A stretch of 64,000 nucleotides of DNA, taken from Eledone cirrhosa (taxonomy: Eukaryota). The DNA is taken from the NCBI GenBank assembly GCA_964016885.1, contig OZ024749.1, forward strand, positions 10,540,001 to 10,604,000, given 5' to 3'. This document shows, piece by piece, positions 4,761 through 38,516 of the stretch. Under the pieces are notes generated by a model that had not been told where the DNA came from, did not search any database, and saw nothing but the letters and a program-made list of their open reading frames with translations. The stretch's first letter is position 1. Each line of letters starts with the position of its first letter. Position numbers and translations under genes: made by a program.

Positions 4761-5271
4761 TTTCGTTTCTGAATTTGTTTAGCAAGATTCTTTATCTGAA
4801 ATCGTGTGTTGAAACCGATATTGTTATACTTAGGGAGGGTCATGTTGCCAATAAGAAACACACGCACCAGTTGCTTTCACTTCAATTTAATTTATTATAT
4901 ATTTATAAATTTACAAATTTATAAATTTCTGGTTGGTTGGTTGGTTCCACAACCAGATAGTTGTTTATATATATATAGTCATAGTTCTTTCGTCACACAC
5001 TCTGTGACCTCTTCAGTGACTGGGGATTTCTTTCTTCGTTTCTGTAGAAAGGAAGAAAGAAATCCCCAGTCACTGAAGAGGTCACAGAGTGTGTGACGAA
5101 AGAACTATGACTATATATATATAAACAACTATCTGGTTGTGGAACCAACCAACCAACCAGAAATTTATAAATTTGTAAATTTATAAATATATAATAAATT
5201 AAATTGAAGTGAAAGCAACTGGTGCGTGTGTTTCTTATTGGCAACATGACCCTCCCTAAGTATAACAATAT
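4761..5271. mobile_element. fold-back element between (TA)n tracts: 454-bp near-perfect palindrome (4818-5271) plus one-sided tail; probable Penelope-like pLTR derivative
   Basis: arms are reverse complements around 5044/5045; each arm carries a hammerhead motif. Confidence 0.8.
5068..5112 (+). ncRNA. type I hammerhead ribozyme motif A (mirror copy at 4977-5021 on the minus strand)
   Basis: agtca-CTGAAGA-g-gtcaca/tgtgac-GAAA-gaac-TA-tgact; 5-bp stem I, 6-bp stem II, minimal stem III. Confidence 0.75.
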
Positions 5272-5310
5272 ATATATATATATATATATATATATATATA
5301 TATATATATA

Positions 5311-5499
5311 CGTTATTCCGGGTTGAATCGGAGGTAACCACAGTAAGTAAGGTACTCAATACATAGCAGAGTATAAAAGTTTTAATATAGATGAGATTCT
5401 ACAGGACTAGAACTGTTTCATTCTTTATAAATCATCAGGATTCCTGATGATTTCTAAAGAATGAAACAGTTCTAGTCCTGTAGAATCGCATCTATATTA
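5311..5499. mobile_element. fold-back element family B, copy 1 (palindrome 5383-5499 plus tail), flanked by (TA)n
   Basis: 58-bp arms; second copy at 34286-34474. Confidence 0.8.
5439..5487 (+). ncRNA. type I hammerhead ribozyme motif B
   Basis: gattc-CTGATGA-t ttc/gaa t-GAAA, stem III acag/ctgt, GTA cleavage triplet, then gaatc. Confidence 0.75.
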
Positions 5500-6044
5500 T
5501 ATATATATATATACATGACTAGCTGAAGTACCCAACCTTGGCCCAGGAGAACAGCTAATAGAAGATGGATAAAAAAGAAAATGACTGTATTGTCTGCTTT
5601 ACAGTATGAGGTGAAACCGTAATGTGTGTGTGTGAAAGTGAGAGAGATTAAAAAAAACAAAAAAAAACATAAAACTTCCTTATTAGGCTGGGGAGTAAAC
5701 TGCTGATTAAATGATAGCATTGGCCTTAGATTTTAAATGTTGTGAAATAACCATAGTCATTATGATCTTTTTCAACTCCAAAGGACGTCATTTGAAACAG
5801 CATTATACCGCATAACATTGCTTCTGAAGTGTTTAGCTTTGTTAGTATGGTCTGTAAGCAGTATATGGATAAAAGCTGGAGGGTTCCCTATCAGTGGAAG
5901 CCTGGAAATGCATCAACGATTGTCCCCCTTGCTTCTGCTGGACATCACCAGAGGGCATTAGTCCCGGTGCTTTGCATAGCTACGGCTTTCTAAATGTTTA
6001 CCTGTAAACATAGCGTATTTCTTTAGAAATACGAAATTCTAATA

Positions 6045-6720
6045 TATACACACACACACATATATATATATACAAATATATATATATATATATATATATA
6101 TATATATATATATATATATATATATAATATATATATATTATATATATATATATATATTATATATATATATATATATATATTATATATATATATATATATA
6201 TATATATATATATATATATATATATATATATATATTATATATATATATATATAATATATATATATATATTATATATATATATATATATTATATATATTAT
6301 ATATATATACATATGTGTATGTGTATATACATATGTGTATGTGTGTGTATATGTATATCTCAGTGGATGCGACCAGATTTCAACACAGCAACAACTACAA
6401 CAACAACAGCAGCAACACCAATAACAACAACAACAGCAACAACACCATCGTCTGTGTTGAATGTGTGTGTATGTATGTATTTATATATATGCGACAGCAA
6501 TAACAGCATCAACACCATTGTCTGCAGCAACAGCAGCAGTGAAATGAAGGACAACAACAACAGTAACAACTACAATAACAACTACAGCACCAACAACTGC
6601 CACCACCATCACTGACCATCCACCACCACCACGCTGATACCATCCACCACCACCACACTGACACCATCCACCACCGCCATTACCAGCGTAAAGCAAACAA
6701 TTATTATTGTTATTATTATT
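6045..6720. repeat. (TA)n, (AAC)n, (ACC)n and (ATT)n microsatellite cluster
   Basis: direct inspection. Confidence 0.95.
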
Positions 6721-6964
6721 ATATACAAGCCGAACTGGACTGGGAAAGGTCAACAGTTGACATGATAGTGATTTTGACGATTTTGATTTTGTATCAGTAC
6801 TGTCGGTAATATATGTATATATATATATGTGTTTGTGAGTGGTGTGTGTGATTGTATGCATGAATGAGTGTTGGTATGTGTGGTTGTGGTTTGTATGCAT
6901 GAGTATTGATGTGTGAGTGTTTGTGTGTGCGTCGTGTCAATAAGTTTTTTTTTTCTTTTTATTA

Positions 6965-35282: not shown

Positions 35283-35482
35283 ATGCCAGTTGAAGGAAGA
35301 TGTGGTAGAGGTAGACCACGAAAAACATGGGCGGAGGTGGTGAGAACAGACCTCAGATCATTGAAGCTCATGGTGGAGATGACGAAGGACCATGACGAGT
35401 GGAGAGATGCTGTGCTGAATAAGACCCGTCCCACCCTTGCAAGCAGGGAAAATCGGACGTAAAATGATGATGATGATGATGA
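35283..35482 (+). mobile_element. RTE family 1 3' end
   Basis: matches 9922-10119. Confidence 0.92.
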
Positions 35483-35489
35483 TATATAT

Positions 35490-37060
35490 ATCCAGAGAGT
35501 GTAACTTGGAGTTACTGTAGGTTCACCCGAGTGAGCACTCGATGTTTAGGTTCACTTCAATGTTGAGGTGTAGAGCTAGACAGAGTGTATTATAGCGAAA
35601 TAAAATAGCAAGGACGATTGGTTACTCCTTTATTATATTTATTGGTTGGTGACGCGCGTTTCACCACTGATCAGTTCAAGGTTCGATCTGTATTGATCTG
35701 ACCCGGCTCTGTAATCTGCGGTTCGTCAGACCCCTTGCAATCGTAATGGAAAAATGAATATACATGCTGTATGAGAAAGTCTGATGTTCCTAAGGTGGTC
35801 AGTGAGATTTGTTTTGTTTGGTGGGTTAATTCAGAAGGATGTTTTTTCCTGTAGTGTATGTGGGGTGGGTGTGGTGAAAAGTTGGTGCTGCCGGGCGGGC
35901 GTAGGTTGAATTTGGTGGCGGTGTAGGAGTGCTGGTTGTCACTAGACAGTTTGGCATGTAGATGTAGCTGATTTTTGTACGTGGTGTGGGTGTGGTGGTG
36001 TTGCGGTTTATGATAGTGAAACCTACAGTCAGTAGGCATCTCTTGACCAAATATACACCCCAATCCACTACCCTATCCTCCCACTCCCACCAACAGCACG
36101 AGAAAATGAGACCGAGATCGTGTAGGTGTCACAACAAAAACACACACAGTCCCCGCTGTAATGTGGCCATGTAGGTAACACGGTAAAAAGTTCCCAGTTC
36201 CACACTGTAAATGTGGTTGGTGTTAGGAAGGGCATCCAGCCGTAGAAAACCTGCCAGATAGTCCTATATGATCTAGACACGTCACCCGACCAGCCTTGCC
36301 TCAAGCGGGACAACTCCCGTCTAACCCATGCTAGCGTGGAAAATGGACGTTAAACGACGATGATGATGATGATGATGATACTGGATGAAAGGTTGCAGTG
36401 TTTAGGGTGGGGTGATATGTGTGGTAGTGGATTGTTAAGGGGGCTCATGTTATAATGTTCTGAGTGTATGTAAAAGCATATAGATGCATATATACACGGA
36501 GCCAGACAAACATATTATATACATACACACGTGTATATATATAGCCAGTGGGGAGGGCGATTGCAGAAACATACGTACACACAGACACACACACATACGT
36601 TGTTTAGGGTGGGATGCTTAGGGTGTGGTATGTGTTGGTGATGTTGATGGTTGTGGATGTATGGCGATGTGTTTGGTGGTGGTGGTGGGGTGATGGGTGT
36701 GACGTGATATTTACAGGATTGAATGATTTACGATGGGTTAGATGTTAAAAACTGACAGAGAAATCACAGAGAAAACAATGGTACTGAAATGAGAGATGGT
36801 GTGGTAAGGTATTGGTGATTATCCCTATGTCGAGTTCGGGCTAGAGTTTGTCCTTGGCACCTGGCCGAATGTCTGGGCGGGCAATGTGTTGGTGATGTTG
36901 ATGGTTGTGGATGTATGGCGATGTGTTTGGTGGTGGCGGTGATGCGTACGACATGATATTTACAAGATCGGGTCTTACAATGGGTTACATGTTAGAGAAG
37001 ACTGAGATGAGGGACAGTGTGGTAAGGCAAAGGTGGTTATCCCTCTGTTGAGTCAGGGTT
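35490..37060 (-). mobile_element. decayed Penelope-like element, interrupted by an RTE 3'UTR copy (36018-36378); upstream boundary uncertain
   Basis: IINRNT...KISYIYMPN resembles the PLE motif IFNRNTxKxSYSCMPN; hammerhead downstream; ends at (TA)n. Confidence 0.65.
35648..35732 (-). ncRNA. type I hammerhead ribozyme motif E
   Basis: ggt-CTGACGA-accgcagatta/tgatcagtggt-GAAA-cgcgcg-TC-acc; palindromic stem III typical of dimeric PLE hammerheads. Confidence 0.82.
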
Positions 37061-37880
37061 AGTCATAAACGTCAAGTAAAATATCTCTGTATTACTGGCT
37101 GAGGGATCTTTCAGCTTCCAGATCTTTCTTCTCCAGGTTGCTTTTTGTTTCAAAGTTCGTTTAGCTCTGACAATGAGGTCGCTGACTACTAGGCTGTGTT
37201 GGGAGGTACATTCCTTGCCCGGGAAGACTTTCGTGTTAACAACCATACATCTATCTCGTCCTCTGGTAAGGATAAAATCTATCTGGCTAGTATGCTCCCC
37301 AGATCTGTAGGTGATCAGGTGGTTGTTGGGTTTTGTTGAAGTTTGTGTTACATATCGACAGGTCATTGGCGTCGCAGAATTTTAGAAGCCTGTAACCTTC
37401 TTCATTTCTTACGCCAAACCCATAGCCTCCGTCGCCATGTTTCCCAACATGTCCGTTAAAGGCCCCTGCAACGAGTAGGAAGTCATTGTCATTCGTTAGA
37501 GTGGTAGTGAGCATTAGGGACTCATAAAACCTATCCTTAAGTACATTTGGCAACCCAGATTGGGGTGCGTAAATGGATATAATTGTAGCTATTGTTTTAT
37601 TTAGTCTGAGTTTAGTGATTCTCACGTTTAGCCTGTTCACTGAGATTACCTTATCTACCCATTTGTCAGCTAATAGTATACCTACACCACCCAACCCGTT
37701 ATCATTTCCCACCCAGGAAAATTTGAGCACTGTGTTTTACCAACAAGGAGCCTAGCAGGCCTTCCTCTCCATCTAGTCTCTTGTACACAACATACATCAA
37801 TTTCCTTTCGCGCTAACAGCTCTATAATTTCTCCTGTTCTTCCTTTCTTTCTGCTCACATTGATGGTGCCGATTCAGAAT
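37060..37880 (-). mobile_element. RTE APE-endonuclease fragment (frameshifted)
   Basis: GLGGVGILLA, IYAPQ, GAFNGHVG, SQIDFIL, WKLKD. Confidence 0.92.
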
Positions 37881-38429
37881 CAATGGAGGCGGGTGGGTTT
37901 TTGTAGAGTAGGAGTTGGGTGTATGTTTTCAGTATCTTAATTAAGGATTTGCATGGTCACCTGGAAACATGTGGGTTCATATTCATTCAAAGTTGTTCAT
38001 CCATAGTTAACGATAGACAAAGATTTCTCAAGAGGAGAATGGTCAAGAAAGATAACTAGTAATATTTGTTGCCACAGGTGATGGATGAAGGTATGTTGTG
38101 GTTTGATTGGTCAGTGAGTCTATGGTGGTGTGTGGGGGGAGAGAAAATGCGAGATAGATAAGTAAGTATAAATACACTGGGCTCTGAGAAGACCTAGATG
38201 TCTATGTCTATGGACGGCAAAAGAAATAGATGAATTGTACAGACATTATAAGTGGAATACGATAAAACCAACTTGCTTGCCCTGTAGCTTGAAGAATAGA
38301 TGCGAGAAAAATATAGGGACATATATTGTAAGAGATATGTAGGAGGGATAGAGAAGGGGGGGGGGGAACCCTCATGTTTGAGTTATATATATATATATTT
38401 TTTTTTATTTAATTACATAATAAACAACA

Positions 38430-38516
38430 CATAATTATTTCATTACCGAAGGTTCCAAGAAACTAGATGATTCTTGCAAGAAACATCGAGTTCAATCGTC
38501 AGACAAAAAAATTATG
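38430..38516 (-). ncRNA. degenerate type I hammerhead motif G (GAAA changed to GGAA)
   Basis: stem I cataatttttttgt/atgaaataattatg (13 of 14 paired), CTGACGA, long stem II, stem III acc/ggt, GTA; (TA)n downstream. Confidence 0.65.

Follow-up and report, generated by a model that had tools for sequence, protein, structure and literature searches.

The window analyzed here (the whole 64,000-nt stretch of Eledone cirrhosa DNA) contains the gene ECM29, between whose exons lie all of the hammerhead ribozyme folds in the window. The folds belong to copies and insertions of seven families, A to G, one of which is also represented by a decayed relative:

4398..59458, minus strand: host gene ECM29, gene start beyond the window; exons found near 4.5, 12.0, 13.1, 16.3, 21.4, 24.8, 31.1 and 59.3 kb
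4761..5271: family A insertion, arms head to head about a centre at 5044/5045, cores at 5016 (minus) and 5073 (plus), 57-nt tail on the minus arm
5311..5499: family B insertion 1, whose minus strand holds the full arm (core 5438, helix I broken) and whose plus strand holds the short arm (core 5444)
16600..16786, plus strand: family C copy, core 16670, followed by (CA)6(TA)21; 5' boundary approximate
19772..21296, plus strand: family D copy 1, about 1.5 kb, comprising an AT-rich 3' region, the hammerhead (core 21109) and its tail; (TA)16 comes next
30386..30648: family E insertion with TA runs on either side; the minus arm (30386-30499) has the full 3' end and stops before the ribozyme, the plus arm (core 30524) ends 75 nt short
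34286..34474: family B insertion 2; the minus strand holds a full arm of 134 nt (core 34413) and the plus strand a short one (core 34421)
34600..34820, plus strand: decayed D-like copy read from the sequence, damaged core near 34640, absent from the first-pass annotation
34837..35271: family D insertion 2, head to head, cores at 35027 (minus) and 35173 (plus), 88-nt tail on the minus arm
35493..37063, minus strand: family F copy, a 5'-truncated end of about 1.6 kb, core 35729 (GAAA-CGCGCG-UC)
38406..38518, minus strand: family G copy, core 38502, ending at the family's short 3' end

The family A insertion corresponds to the 3' end of a Nematis-like reverse transcriptase (RT)/GIY-YIG element and shares a (TA)21 run at 5268-5309 with B insertion 1. 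The minus arm of B insertion 2 begins at the predicted transcription start discussed below, and the family F copy is interrupted at 36016-36360 by an unrelated piece.

With a structural descriptor, 10 complete type I hammerhead folds were found in the window (+5073, +5444, +16670, +21109, +30524, +35173, -5016, -34413, -35027, and -35729, signs denoting strands), whereas 200 dinucleotide shuffles of the window, scanned with the same descriptor, yielded 0.19 on average and never more than 2; the motifs of the first-pass annotation are real. The CUGANGA/GAAA/NUH core is present at every coordinate which that annotation had listed. Three more cores fail the descriptor: in -5438 and +34421 the inversion joint cuts helix I, and in -38502 (family G) GAAA has become GGAA in the window copy, the motif being intact in most other copies seen. 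An Rfam search at E<=5, which had been offered as a check, matched no hammerhead family. The 13 cores sort into seven families, the number proposed; several of these are indeed unrelated, but the listed positions 5439 and 34368 belong to one family rather than two, as do 21101, 34971, and 35165. In an alignment of B-like copies (96 of 105 distinct copies aligned), two pairs of helix I are changed on both sides between subfamilies (AU/CG and AU/GC), and both the paired fraction (85.5%) and the score (0.120) lie above 500 of 500 shuffles; the count of double-change pairs is 4 versus 3.7 in shuffles, which is no excess, and helices II and III are nearly invariant among the 96 copies. The listed motifs are type I hammerhead folds and as such putative self-cleaving ribozymes.

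These motifs are almost certainly the ends of dispersed Penelope-like elements, the origin that had been proposed for them. As read from sequence, the window copies of A, B, D, E, and F are 5'-truncated ends of protein-coding Penelope-like elements, because other genomic copies of each join open frames with a GIY-YIG endonuclease; the frames of A, B, and D carry RT plus endonuclease, and those of E and F the endonuclease end only. The GIY-YIG frame is reached in 12 of 30 tail-selected copies of family A (in 11 of these, 176-285 nt before the core), and the family A protein has atlas matches to RT clusters at 0.96. In family B, 11 of 30 copies continue into the intron or ORF, and the frame of 681 amino acids holds DKT, CxCX5C, CxxC, and CxH motifs and an RWK-like motif but has no CCHH. 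Open frames are joined in 2 of 30 copies for D, in 2 of 30 for F, and, after one upstream step, in at least 6 of 30 for E. The elements are thus not invisible to protein-based annotation, as had been claimed. In domain and structure-database searches, Pfam gave a sub-threshold GIY-YIG match for B and none for A or D, and PDB sequence searches with the A and B proteins gave no match. Families C and G may be non-autonomous, since no open frame was found among 30 copies of C, an old family whose other copies are 73-87% alike, or among about 56 distinct copies of G, and five extended G loci showed no linked frame.

Clade labels here follow motifs read by eye against section 11 and the supplement of Craig et al. 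(2021, PMC8557442) and are not tree-based. By such motifs, B, D, E, and F belong to the Hydra clade: besides B, family D has the linker and C-terminal Hydra motifs, F the linker and CxxC, and E CxxC and CxH. With that clade, including Hydra-1_Obim of Octopus bimaculoides, they share, as far as its description in those parts of the paper goes, the C-terminal GIY-YIG with the RWK-like, DKT, CxCX5C, CxxC, and CxH motifs, a canonical hammerhead close to the 3' end, insertion at (TA)n, partial tandems, an inverted 5'-truncated arm, and a one-sided tail. They differ in that tails are 57-99 nt here rather than 30-40, the hammerheads are unlike that of Hydra-1_Obim, and family B exceeds 5 kb owing to an intron of 2.8-3.4 kb, whereas the Hydra elements are described as below 3 kb and the same parts of the paper mention no intron. 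Family A has, by eye, the CX4CxxC linker, C-C-H-H endonuclease motif, YIGETxR, and DK motif found in the Nematis rows of that supplement and appears Nematis-like, the CX2-5CxxC linker and CCHH also occurring in Neptune, a possible alternative assignment.

Family B is the most informative. Its GT-AG intron (2,783-3,352 nt in three copies) ends four bases before the hammerhead core, so that helix I would have 6 bp in unspliced and 4 bp in spliced copies; the GTGAGT donor is present in 24 of 30 loci, and the exact exon join was seen in 6 rows from 5 loci. Inside the intron, about 30 bases before helix I, lies a TATA box, with TATAAATA at -29 to -31 in three subfamilies that differ in their spacers. 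Tandem copies have the order hammerhead-tail-ATG-ORF-intron-hammerhead-tail: 16 of 30 ORF-start copies have a core 265-288 nt before the query (a partial tandem), the ATG is at +182, and the upstream repeat lies 181 nt before it. Whole-genome exact pattern counts, from which all start-site numbers derive (a step in contig depth at this point does not equal copy number), gave 12,660 exact B cores, about half of which end within 5 bases of the point where the intron ends, while 5,953 continue to -9. Where cores stop exactly at that point, the base before -6 is G in 1,754 and A or T in 373; these extra-G joints are pattern counts rather than joints read individually. Taken together, this suggests that the B transcript begins at the first base of helix I, driven by a promoter within the intron, and the extra G before the stop point is likely a copy of the cap. 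We lean toward run-off at the cap as the source of the sharp 5' end.

The extra G may also stem in part from the palindromic joint or from fold-back on helix I.

Alternatively, the short B ends could reflect RT stalling or folding back on the hammerhead helix, or stopping at a bound 3' splice site, a possibility that we take seriously but consider unlikely. The stop point is where helix I ends and where the splice acceptor lies; the first base added by a fold-back would be the same, and several families have 5' ends clustering slightly upstream of the core. Three bases of the fold-back extension are indeed matched, but only in 306 of the 1,754 extra-G cores, the longer extension being missing in the other 83%; the site is read through in the 5,953 cores that reach -9, the TATA box keeps its canonical distance in three subfamilies, and in the tandems this repeat precedes the ATG by 181 nt. 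Only family B showed a sharp 5' end with the extra G: a cap signature sought in A, D, E, and F was not clearly found, their 5' ends forming looser clusters confounded by subfamily variants and TA microhomology, and in A and D the 5' ends did not peak at the cleavage site.

If run-off at the cap is correct, the short B copies, a discrete product of about 135 nt without the TATA box, probably arise as promoterless by-products of the transcript that the autonomous element itself makes. The first-pass annotation had instead seen separate, very short, non-autonomous, retrozyme-like families. Shortness holds for the B copies but not for the D copy at 21109 (about 1.5 kb) or the F copy (about 1.6 kb), and non-autonomy could apply to C and G but not to the five families with coding parents. 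Animal non-LTR retrozymes do resemble the window units in being non-coding type I hammerheads related to Penelope-like terminal repeats; as presented in the parts of Li, Clavereau and Pollet (2026, 10.64898/2026.07.22.740005) and Cervera and de la Pena (2020, PMC7229834) used here, however, they lack coding capacity and are defined as head-to-tail tandems, whereas window copies are single or head-to-head. Independent elements, each with a small and possibly circular RNA and mobilized in trans by the enzymes of Penelope-like elements, would account for the shortness of most copies and the frameless C and G; B cores reaching -9 are moreover strand-skewed (4,058 versus 1,895), and a short head-to-tail joint in contigs reveals B-derived tandem arrays outside the window. 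We nevertheless find this reading improbable: A, B, D, E, and F are colinear with GIY-YIG frames, short B copies and long ones have tails that are 99-100% alike, the short ones have no TATA box, and the window itself holds no head-to-tail tandem of hammerhead units.

The arms and tails bear on how the copies were made. Each family examined has two fixed 3' ends bounding a tail of 57, 67, 88, 75, 99, and 57 nt (A, B, D, E, F, and G, respectively); five aligned tails share a loose GAGUGC-like word, with 47% column identity. In a set of 175 copies from the families other than C, 97 are two-armed insertions, of which 90 pair a full with a short 3' end, 1 is full-full, 1 short-short, and 5 are of other kinds. 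These end statistics come from tail-side queries (those for E, F, and G still include the core), chosen because B and D queries spanning the inversion joint were biased to identical joints; a 74-nt B tail gave no match as a query, and a longer one retrieved copies. Inverted duplication with a one-sided tail had been ascribed to most of the elements: the feature is genuine, and "most" amounts to five of nine listed loci (A, both B, the second D, and E). Three TA units lie within 4 nt of the 3' end in 141 of 175 copies, family G contributing only 8 of 29. In the window, a (TA)4 run follows the cleavage site by 4-160 nt in 10 of 10 complete folds, compared with 16% of window positions, in line with the proposed (TA)n landing sites; in family A the TA run closest to the site lies within the element, those that flank it being more distant.

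We consider it very probable, as the best explanation of the whole, that these are Penelope-like ends deposited by target-primed reverse transcription at (TA)n. Each insertion likely arose by such priming at a (TA)n run, which the element's endonuclease would cut; both cut strands probably prime on a single sense RNA at two fixed sites, a template that the ribozyme would leave mostly uncut, and the two cDNAs would be joined head to head at their growing ends. That one RNA is primed twice seems to us probable. The short-ended arm extends further 5' in 18 cases and therefore did not come from fold-back of one cDNA. Splicing gives a further view: more than 99% of B copies reaching the intron keep it, and among the 12,660 exact cores only 19 are spliced. 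Sixteen spliced loci were found, 12 with a partner arm, of which 7 are spliced, 5 too short, and 0 unspliced; the loci are few, and for 3 of the 7 concordant arms the assignment depends on 4-5 exon bases. By comparison, the last base of the intron is present in 9 of 13 short partner arms from an unselected set. The spliced copies act as tags of single RNA molecules; they point to both arms coming from one sense template. Self-priming on an antisense template, as proposed in PMC3846280, could instead generate inverted arms and account for intron retention too, and the frequent palindromic joints fit it. We nonetheless regard it as highly improbable: exactly spliced copies with both arms spliced, in at least four sequence variants, require sense RNA as template, the longer arm can be either of the two, and the fixed ends are located 3' of the sense hammerhead, a position shared with the in vitro work on the anole element in the portions of PMC11167929 consulted. 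Selection of the cluster as a regulatory feature of ECM29 pre-mRNA is barely credible, for while the density of 10 folds per 64 kb exceeds the sampled genome rate about 2.4-fold and 4 of 10 folds have the sense orientation of the gene, 13 folds occur in 200 kb of arbitrary genome sequence, the following 30 kb of ECM29 holds 0, the window was chosen for the cluster, the families are young and dispersed, the copies are nested in one another's TA runs, and two window cores are decayed. The location inside one gene, stressed at first, is thus correct and not peculiar to ECM29.

For family B, the first base of helix I, 30 nt downstream of the intronic TATA box, would be the transcription start; priming on the 5'-most repeat would run off at the cap and leave promoterless copies of about 135 nt, and priming on the 3' repeat would give longer copies, in which the promoter survives only when the intron has not been removed. 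We give about an even chance to the full scheme, in which one capped sense RNA is primed twice, the intron's acceptor AG doubles as transcription start and first bases of helix I, run-off yields thousands of promoterless mini-copies, and intron-keepers alone found lineages. An intron promoter accounts for a lineage keeping its intron, not for the less than 1% of new copies that are spliced.

TA targeting, inverted arms, and tails are already published for Penelope-like elements, and parts of the scheme have precedents, as described in the portions of each source consulted. Penelope of Drosophila virilis, like B, has a spliceosomal intron that ends at the 5' strand of helix I and is kept in genomic copies, with hammerheads that differ between spliced and unspliced forms (Cervera and de la Pena, 2014, PMC4209133; Schostak et al., 2008, PMC2377424). 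Its intron is 75 bp and lies downstream of a TATA-less internal promoter, whereas that of B is about 40 times longer, with a TATA box within, a predicted start at the acceptor AG, and rare spliced genomic copies; Penelope transcription does not need the intron (PMC2377424), which counts against an intron promoter in B. The Poseidon element PAc of Anolis carolinensis (Frangieh et al., 2024, PMC11167929) likewise has two internal reverse-transcription start sites bounding a tail, cutting and extension of both target strands, AT-rich targets, and an uncut RNA template. Its start sites were shown in vitro and ours are read from genomic copies; strict pairing of long and short arms and concordant arm splicing are not described for PAc in the portions consulted, and its lack of strand preference between the two sites in vitro counts against our scheme. 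In a search of the openly accessible literature, we found no publication on a Penelope-like intron promoter, cap run-off copies, or twin priming.

The hammerhead cluster is ordinary for the E. cirrhosa genome, debris of Penelope-like elements of which, extrapolating from 13 folds per 200 kb, there would be roughly 100,000-300,000 folds in total. Its main value lies in family B, which bears on the origin of inverted arms and tails, on the sense of the template, and on the keeping of introns, questions left open in the parts of PMC8557442 and PMC3846280 drawn on here. The start site, promoter, and two priming sites of family B are predicted to the base and so are directly testable; if the scheme is true, family B would be a natural record of the Penelope-like replication cycle.

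A structural descriptor (CUGANGA, GAAA and NUH with three helices) finds 10 type I hammerhead folds in the window, against a mean of 0.19 and a maximum of 2 in 200 block-wise dinucleotide shuffles, which confirms the cores of the first-pass annotation by its own proposed control. Three further cores are damaged, two through inversion joints and one (38502) through a core change; the family of the latter is intact in most other copies seen, with helix III CCUUCGG. As the annotation had estimated, the cores group into seven families, A to G, inside one gene, and all are intronic because the minus-strand exons of ECM29 (Pfam) span 4.5 to 59.4 kb and beyond. 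Covariation among B-like copies extends to no more than two helix I pairs. The window, on contig C9 of a 3.0 Gb assembly, has 38% GC and many (TA)n runs. Twenty arbitrary 10-kb genome stretches hold 13 folds per 200 kb (average of 40 shuffles, 0.4); the density of the window is about 2.4 times this sample, a modest excess, the window having been chosen for its folds, and the descriptor finds no fold in the next 30 kb of ECM29. Fetched loci totaling 1.65 Mb, enriched by the family queries, yield 273 distinct folds that form 56 clusters, of which 19 have at least two members. First-look candidates number at least 549 for A, 945 for B, 75 for C, 1,141 for D, 1,298 for E, 4,807 for F, and 581 for G.

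The ECM29 introns carry other insertions and repeats, including two coding features:

7144-10101, + strand: endonuclease plus reverse transcriptase (RT) frame, 985 aa, uninterrupted, (GAT)n tail
17636-18301, + strand: type I phosphodiesterase / nucleotide pyrophosphatase piece, 222 aa, intronless (Pfam PF01663, E 2e-28)

We take the first to be an RTE-like LINE, and several shorter copies of it lie elsewhere in the window. The second is antisense within its intron and possibly a retrocopy. Introns at 1-4218 and 40176-51068 are filled by several long minisatellites, whose units measure 16-50 bp, and a 41-bp minisatellite of about 117 units (51760-54013 and 56695-59244) adjoins the exon at 59210-59458, its units resembling, on the gene strand, the 3' end of that exon plus its GTGAGT donor.

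The families had been read as short, non-autonomous, retrozyme-like Penelope derivatives. Their Penelope-like type is borne out, and their supposed standing as separate, very short non-autonomous families is not, for the five (A, B, D, E and F) in which tracing 30 fetched copies each upstream reached a coding parent. A GIY-YIG frame was reached in 12 of 30 family A copies, preceded in one by an 864-aa RT frame; by eye, its linker and CCHH agree with Nematis rows of PMC8557442, and an atlas search ties the protein to RT clusters. The family A frame at fetched locus L244, 2278-4870, has a long N/T/H-rich stretch ahead of the RT, a feature also reported from Penelope elements of rotifers (PMC3846280). 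Two of 30 F copies lead into an endonuclease with a CxCX5C linker, as do 2 of 30 D copies once a stretch of AT-rich sequence is crossed (about 1.9 kb in the colinear copy, 1.5 kb of it retained in window copy 21109). Family E gave a frame in at least 6 of 30 copies after one upstream step, and B a 681-aa frame carrying Hydra motifs. No frame was found for C in 30 old copies, which have little upstream sequence in common, or for G in 60 rows (a few of them repeats), of which five were followed out to 10 kb. These proteins are scarcely detected by Pfam and PDB searches.

In six families the 3' end falls at either of two fixed positions, 57-99 nt apart. The 175 copies analyzed (five rows that were the same locus from the other arm removed, simple-repeat inverted hits disregarded) include 141 with TA units at the 3' end and 97 with a second, head-to-head arm, in keeping with the (TA)n landing sites and tailed inverted duplications first noticed. 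One full and one short end are paired in 90 of the 97; queries for A, B, D and F forced the main arm to be full, and the pairing also holds where the query left the end free (E, 13/13; G, 10/14). The 5' reach is greater for the short-ended arm in 18 cases and for the full-ended arm in 35. Nesting, as of A beside B at 5268-5309, probably arises because each insertion is flanked by new TA runs. A tail with an inverted arm is already reported for Penelope-like elements (PMC8557442), and the tail has been linked in vitro to two reverse-transcription starts (PMC11167929).

In family B, 16 of 30 copies that cover the frame start have hammerhead and tail just upstream of it; the ATG comes 181 nt past the first base of helix I. 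A GTGAGT donor lies 3' of the frame's 3' region in 24 of 30 loci, six rows from five loci show an exact junction between that 3' region and a point four bases ahead of the core, and the intron lengths of three copies are 2,783, 2,954 and 3,352 nt. Within the intron, TATAAATA starts 30 nt before the first base of helix I, a base that agrees with what we take to be the initiator consensus, and a CCAAT word lies at -84; in two other subfamilies, whose spacers differ, the TATA box is retained, at -29 and -31. In contigs of two other organisms, loose ends terminate in CCAG at the start of family B helix I.

Exact pattern matching over the whole genome gave 12,660 family B cores from -4, of which 5,953 extend to -9 and 1,661 match exactly as far as the TATA box. 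Unspliced forward cores exceed reverse ones by about 2,160, an excess missing from the TATA-reaching pattern, and this skew probably reflects arrays. Contigs show units of roughly 78 nt joined head to tail, and a large short-unit hammerhead array probably exists somewhere in the genome. At G000:C1:83679811-83691743, 12 copies of the B TATA-plus-hammerhead motif recur on one strand every 1.08 kb or so, forming a tandem array derived from B that we regard as a retrozyme-like offshoot. The 19 spliced cores represent 16 loci and at least four sequence variants; a partner arm is visible at 12, spliced in seven (four clear, three resting on 4-5 bases), too short in five, and unspliced in none. Why spliced insertions are so rare is not accounted for by loss of the promoter, a point against the B model.

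Our model joins the observed folds, coding parents, 3' ends, arm pairing, B intron and tandem order to published TA bias, uncut RNA as template, and cutting and extension of both strands. A single sense RNA would be primed by both target strands, each at its own site, after which the two cDNAs would be joined. In family B the RNA would start at helix I; priming on its first repeat would run off at the cap, yielding both window B copies, and priming on the last repeat would give long copies, in which the promoter is present only when the RNA was unspliced. A rival account of the 5' stop is that reverse transcription folds back or stalls at helix I. Before -6, where C is expected from the template, 1,754 cores have G and 373 have A or T, and a three-base fold-back fits 306 cores; in LINE-1, an untemplated G is the mark of full-length insertions (PMC12934576). 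This cap signature is clear in B only. Upstream of family G cores (fetched loci L400-L402), the sequence is rich in GT/TA and has a pyrimidine tract and a TAG some 40 nt short of the core, which suggests that G, too, may have an intron or promoter there. Family A 5' ends cluster about 60 nt before the core, a possible start region, near a AAAATGGCG word resembling what we take to be a YY1 site.

By motif, the elements belong to EN+ Penelope-like elements, and they work like them; they resemble Hydra-1_Obim, clade labels here being assigned by eye from motifs. Retrozymes are defined by tandem, non-coding units, and the window elements answer to neither description, the second judged from the coding parents of five families. 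The helix I intron itself is known, the D. virilis Penelope intron likewise ending at helix I (PMC4209133); in contrast to the promoter role proposed for the B intron, it is described in PMC2377424 as dispensable for transcription, a difference that we count against the B model. Among the papers that our literature search returned, none describes such an intron in a Hydra-clade element with an internal TATA promoter, run-off copies and concordantly spliced arms. Cap and transcription start are predicted from sequence, and a hammerhead cut 45 nt past such a cap would decap the B messenger, making the ribozyme a possible switch.
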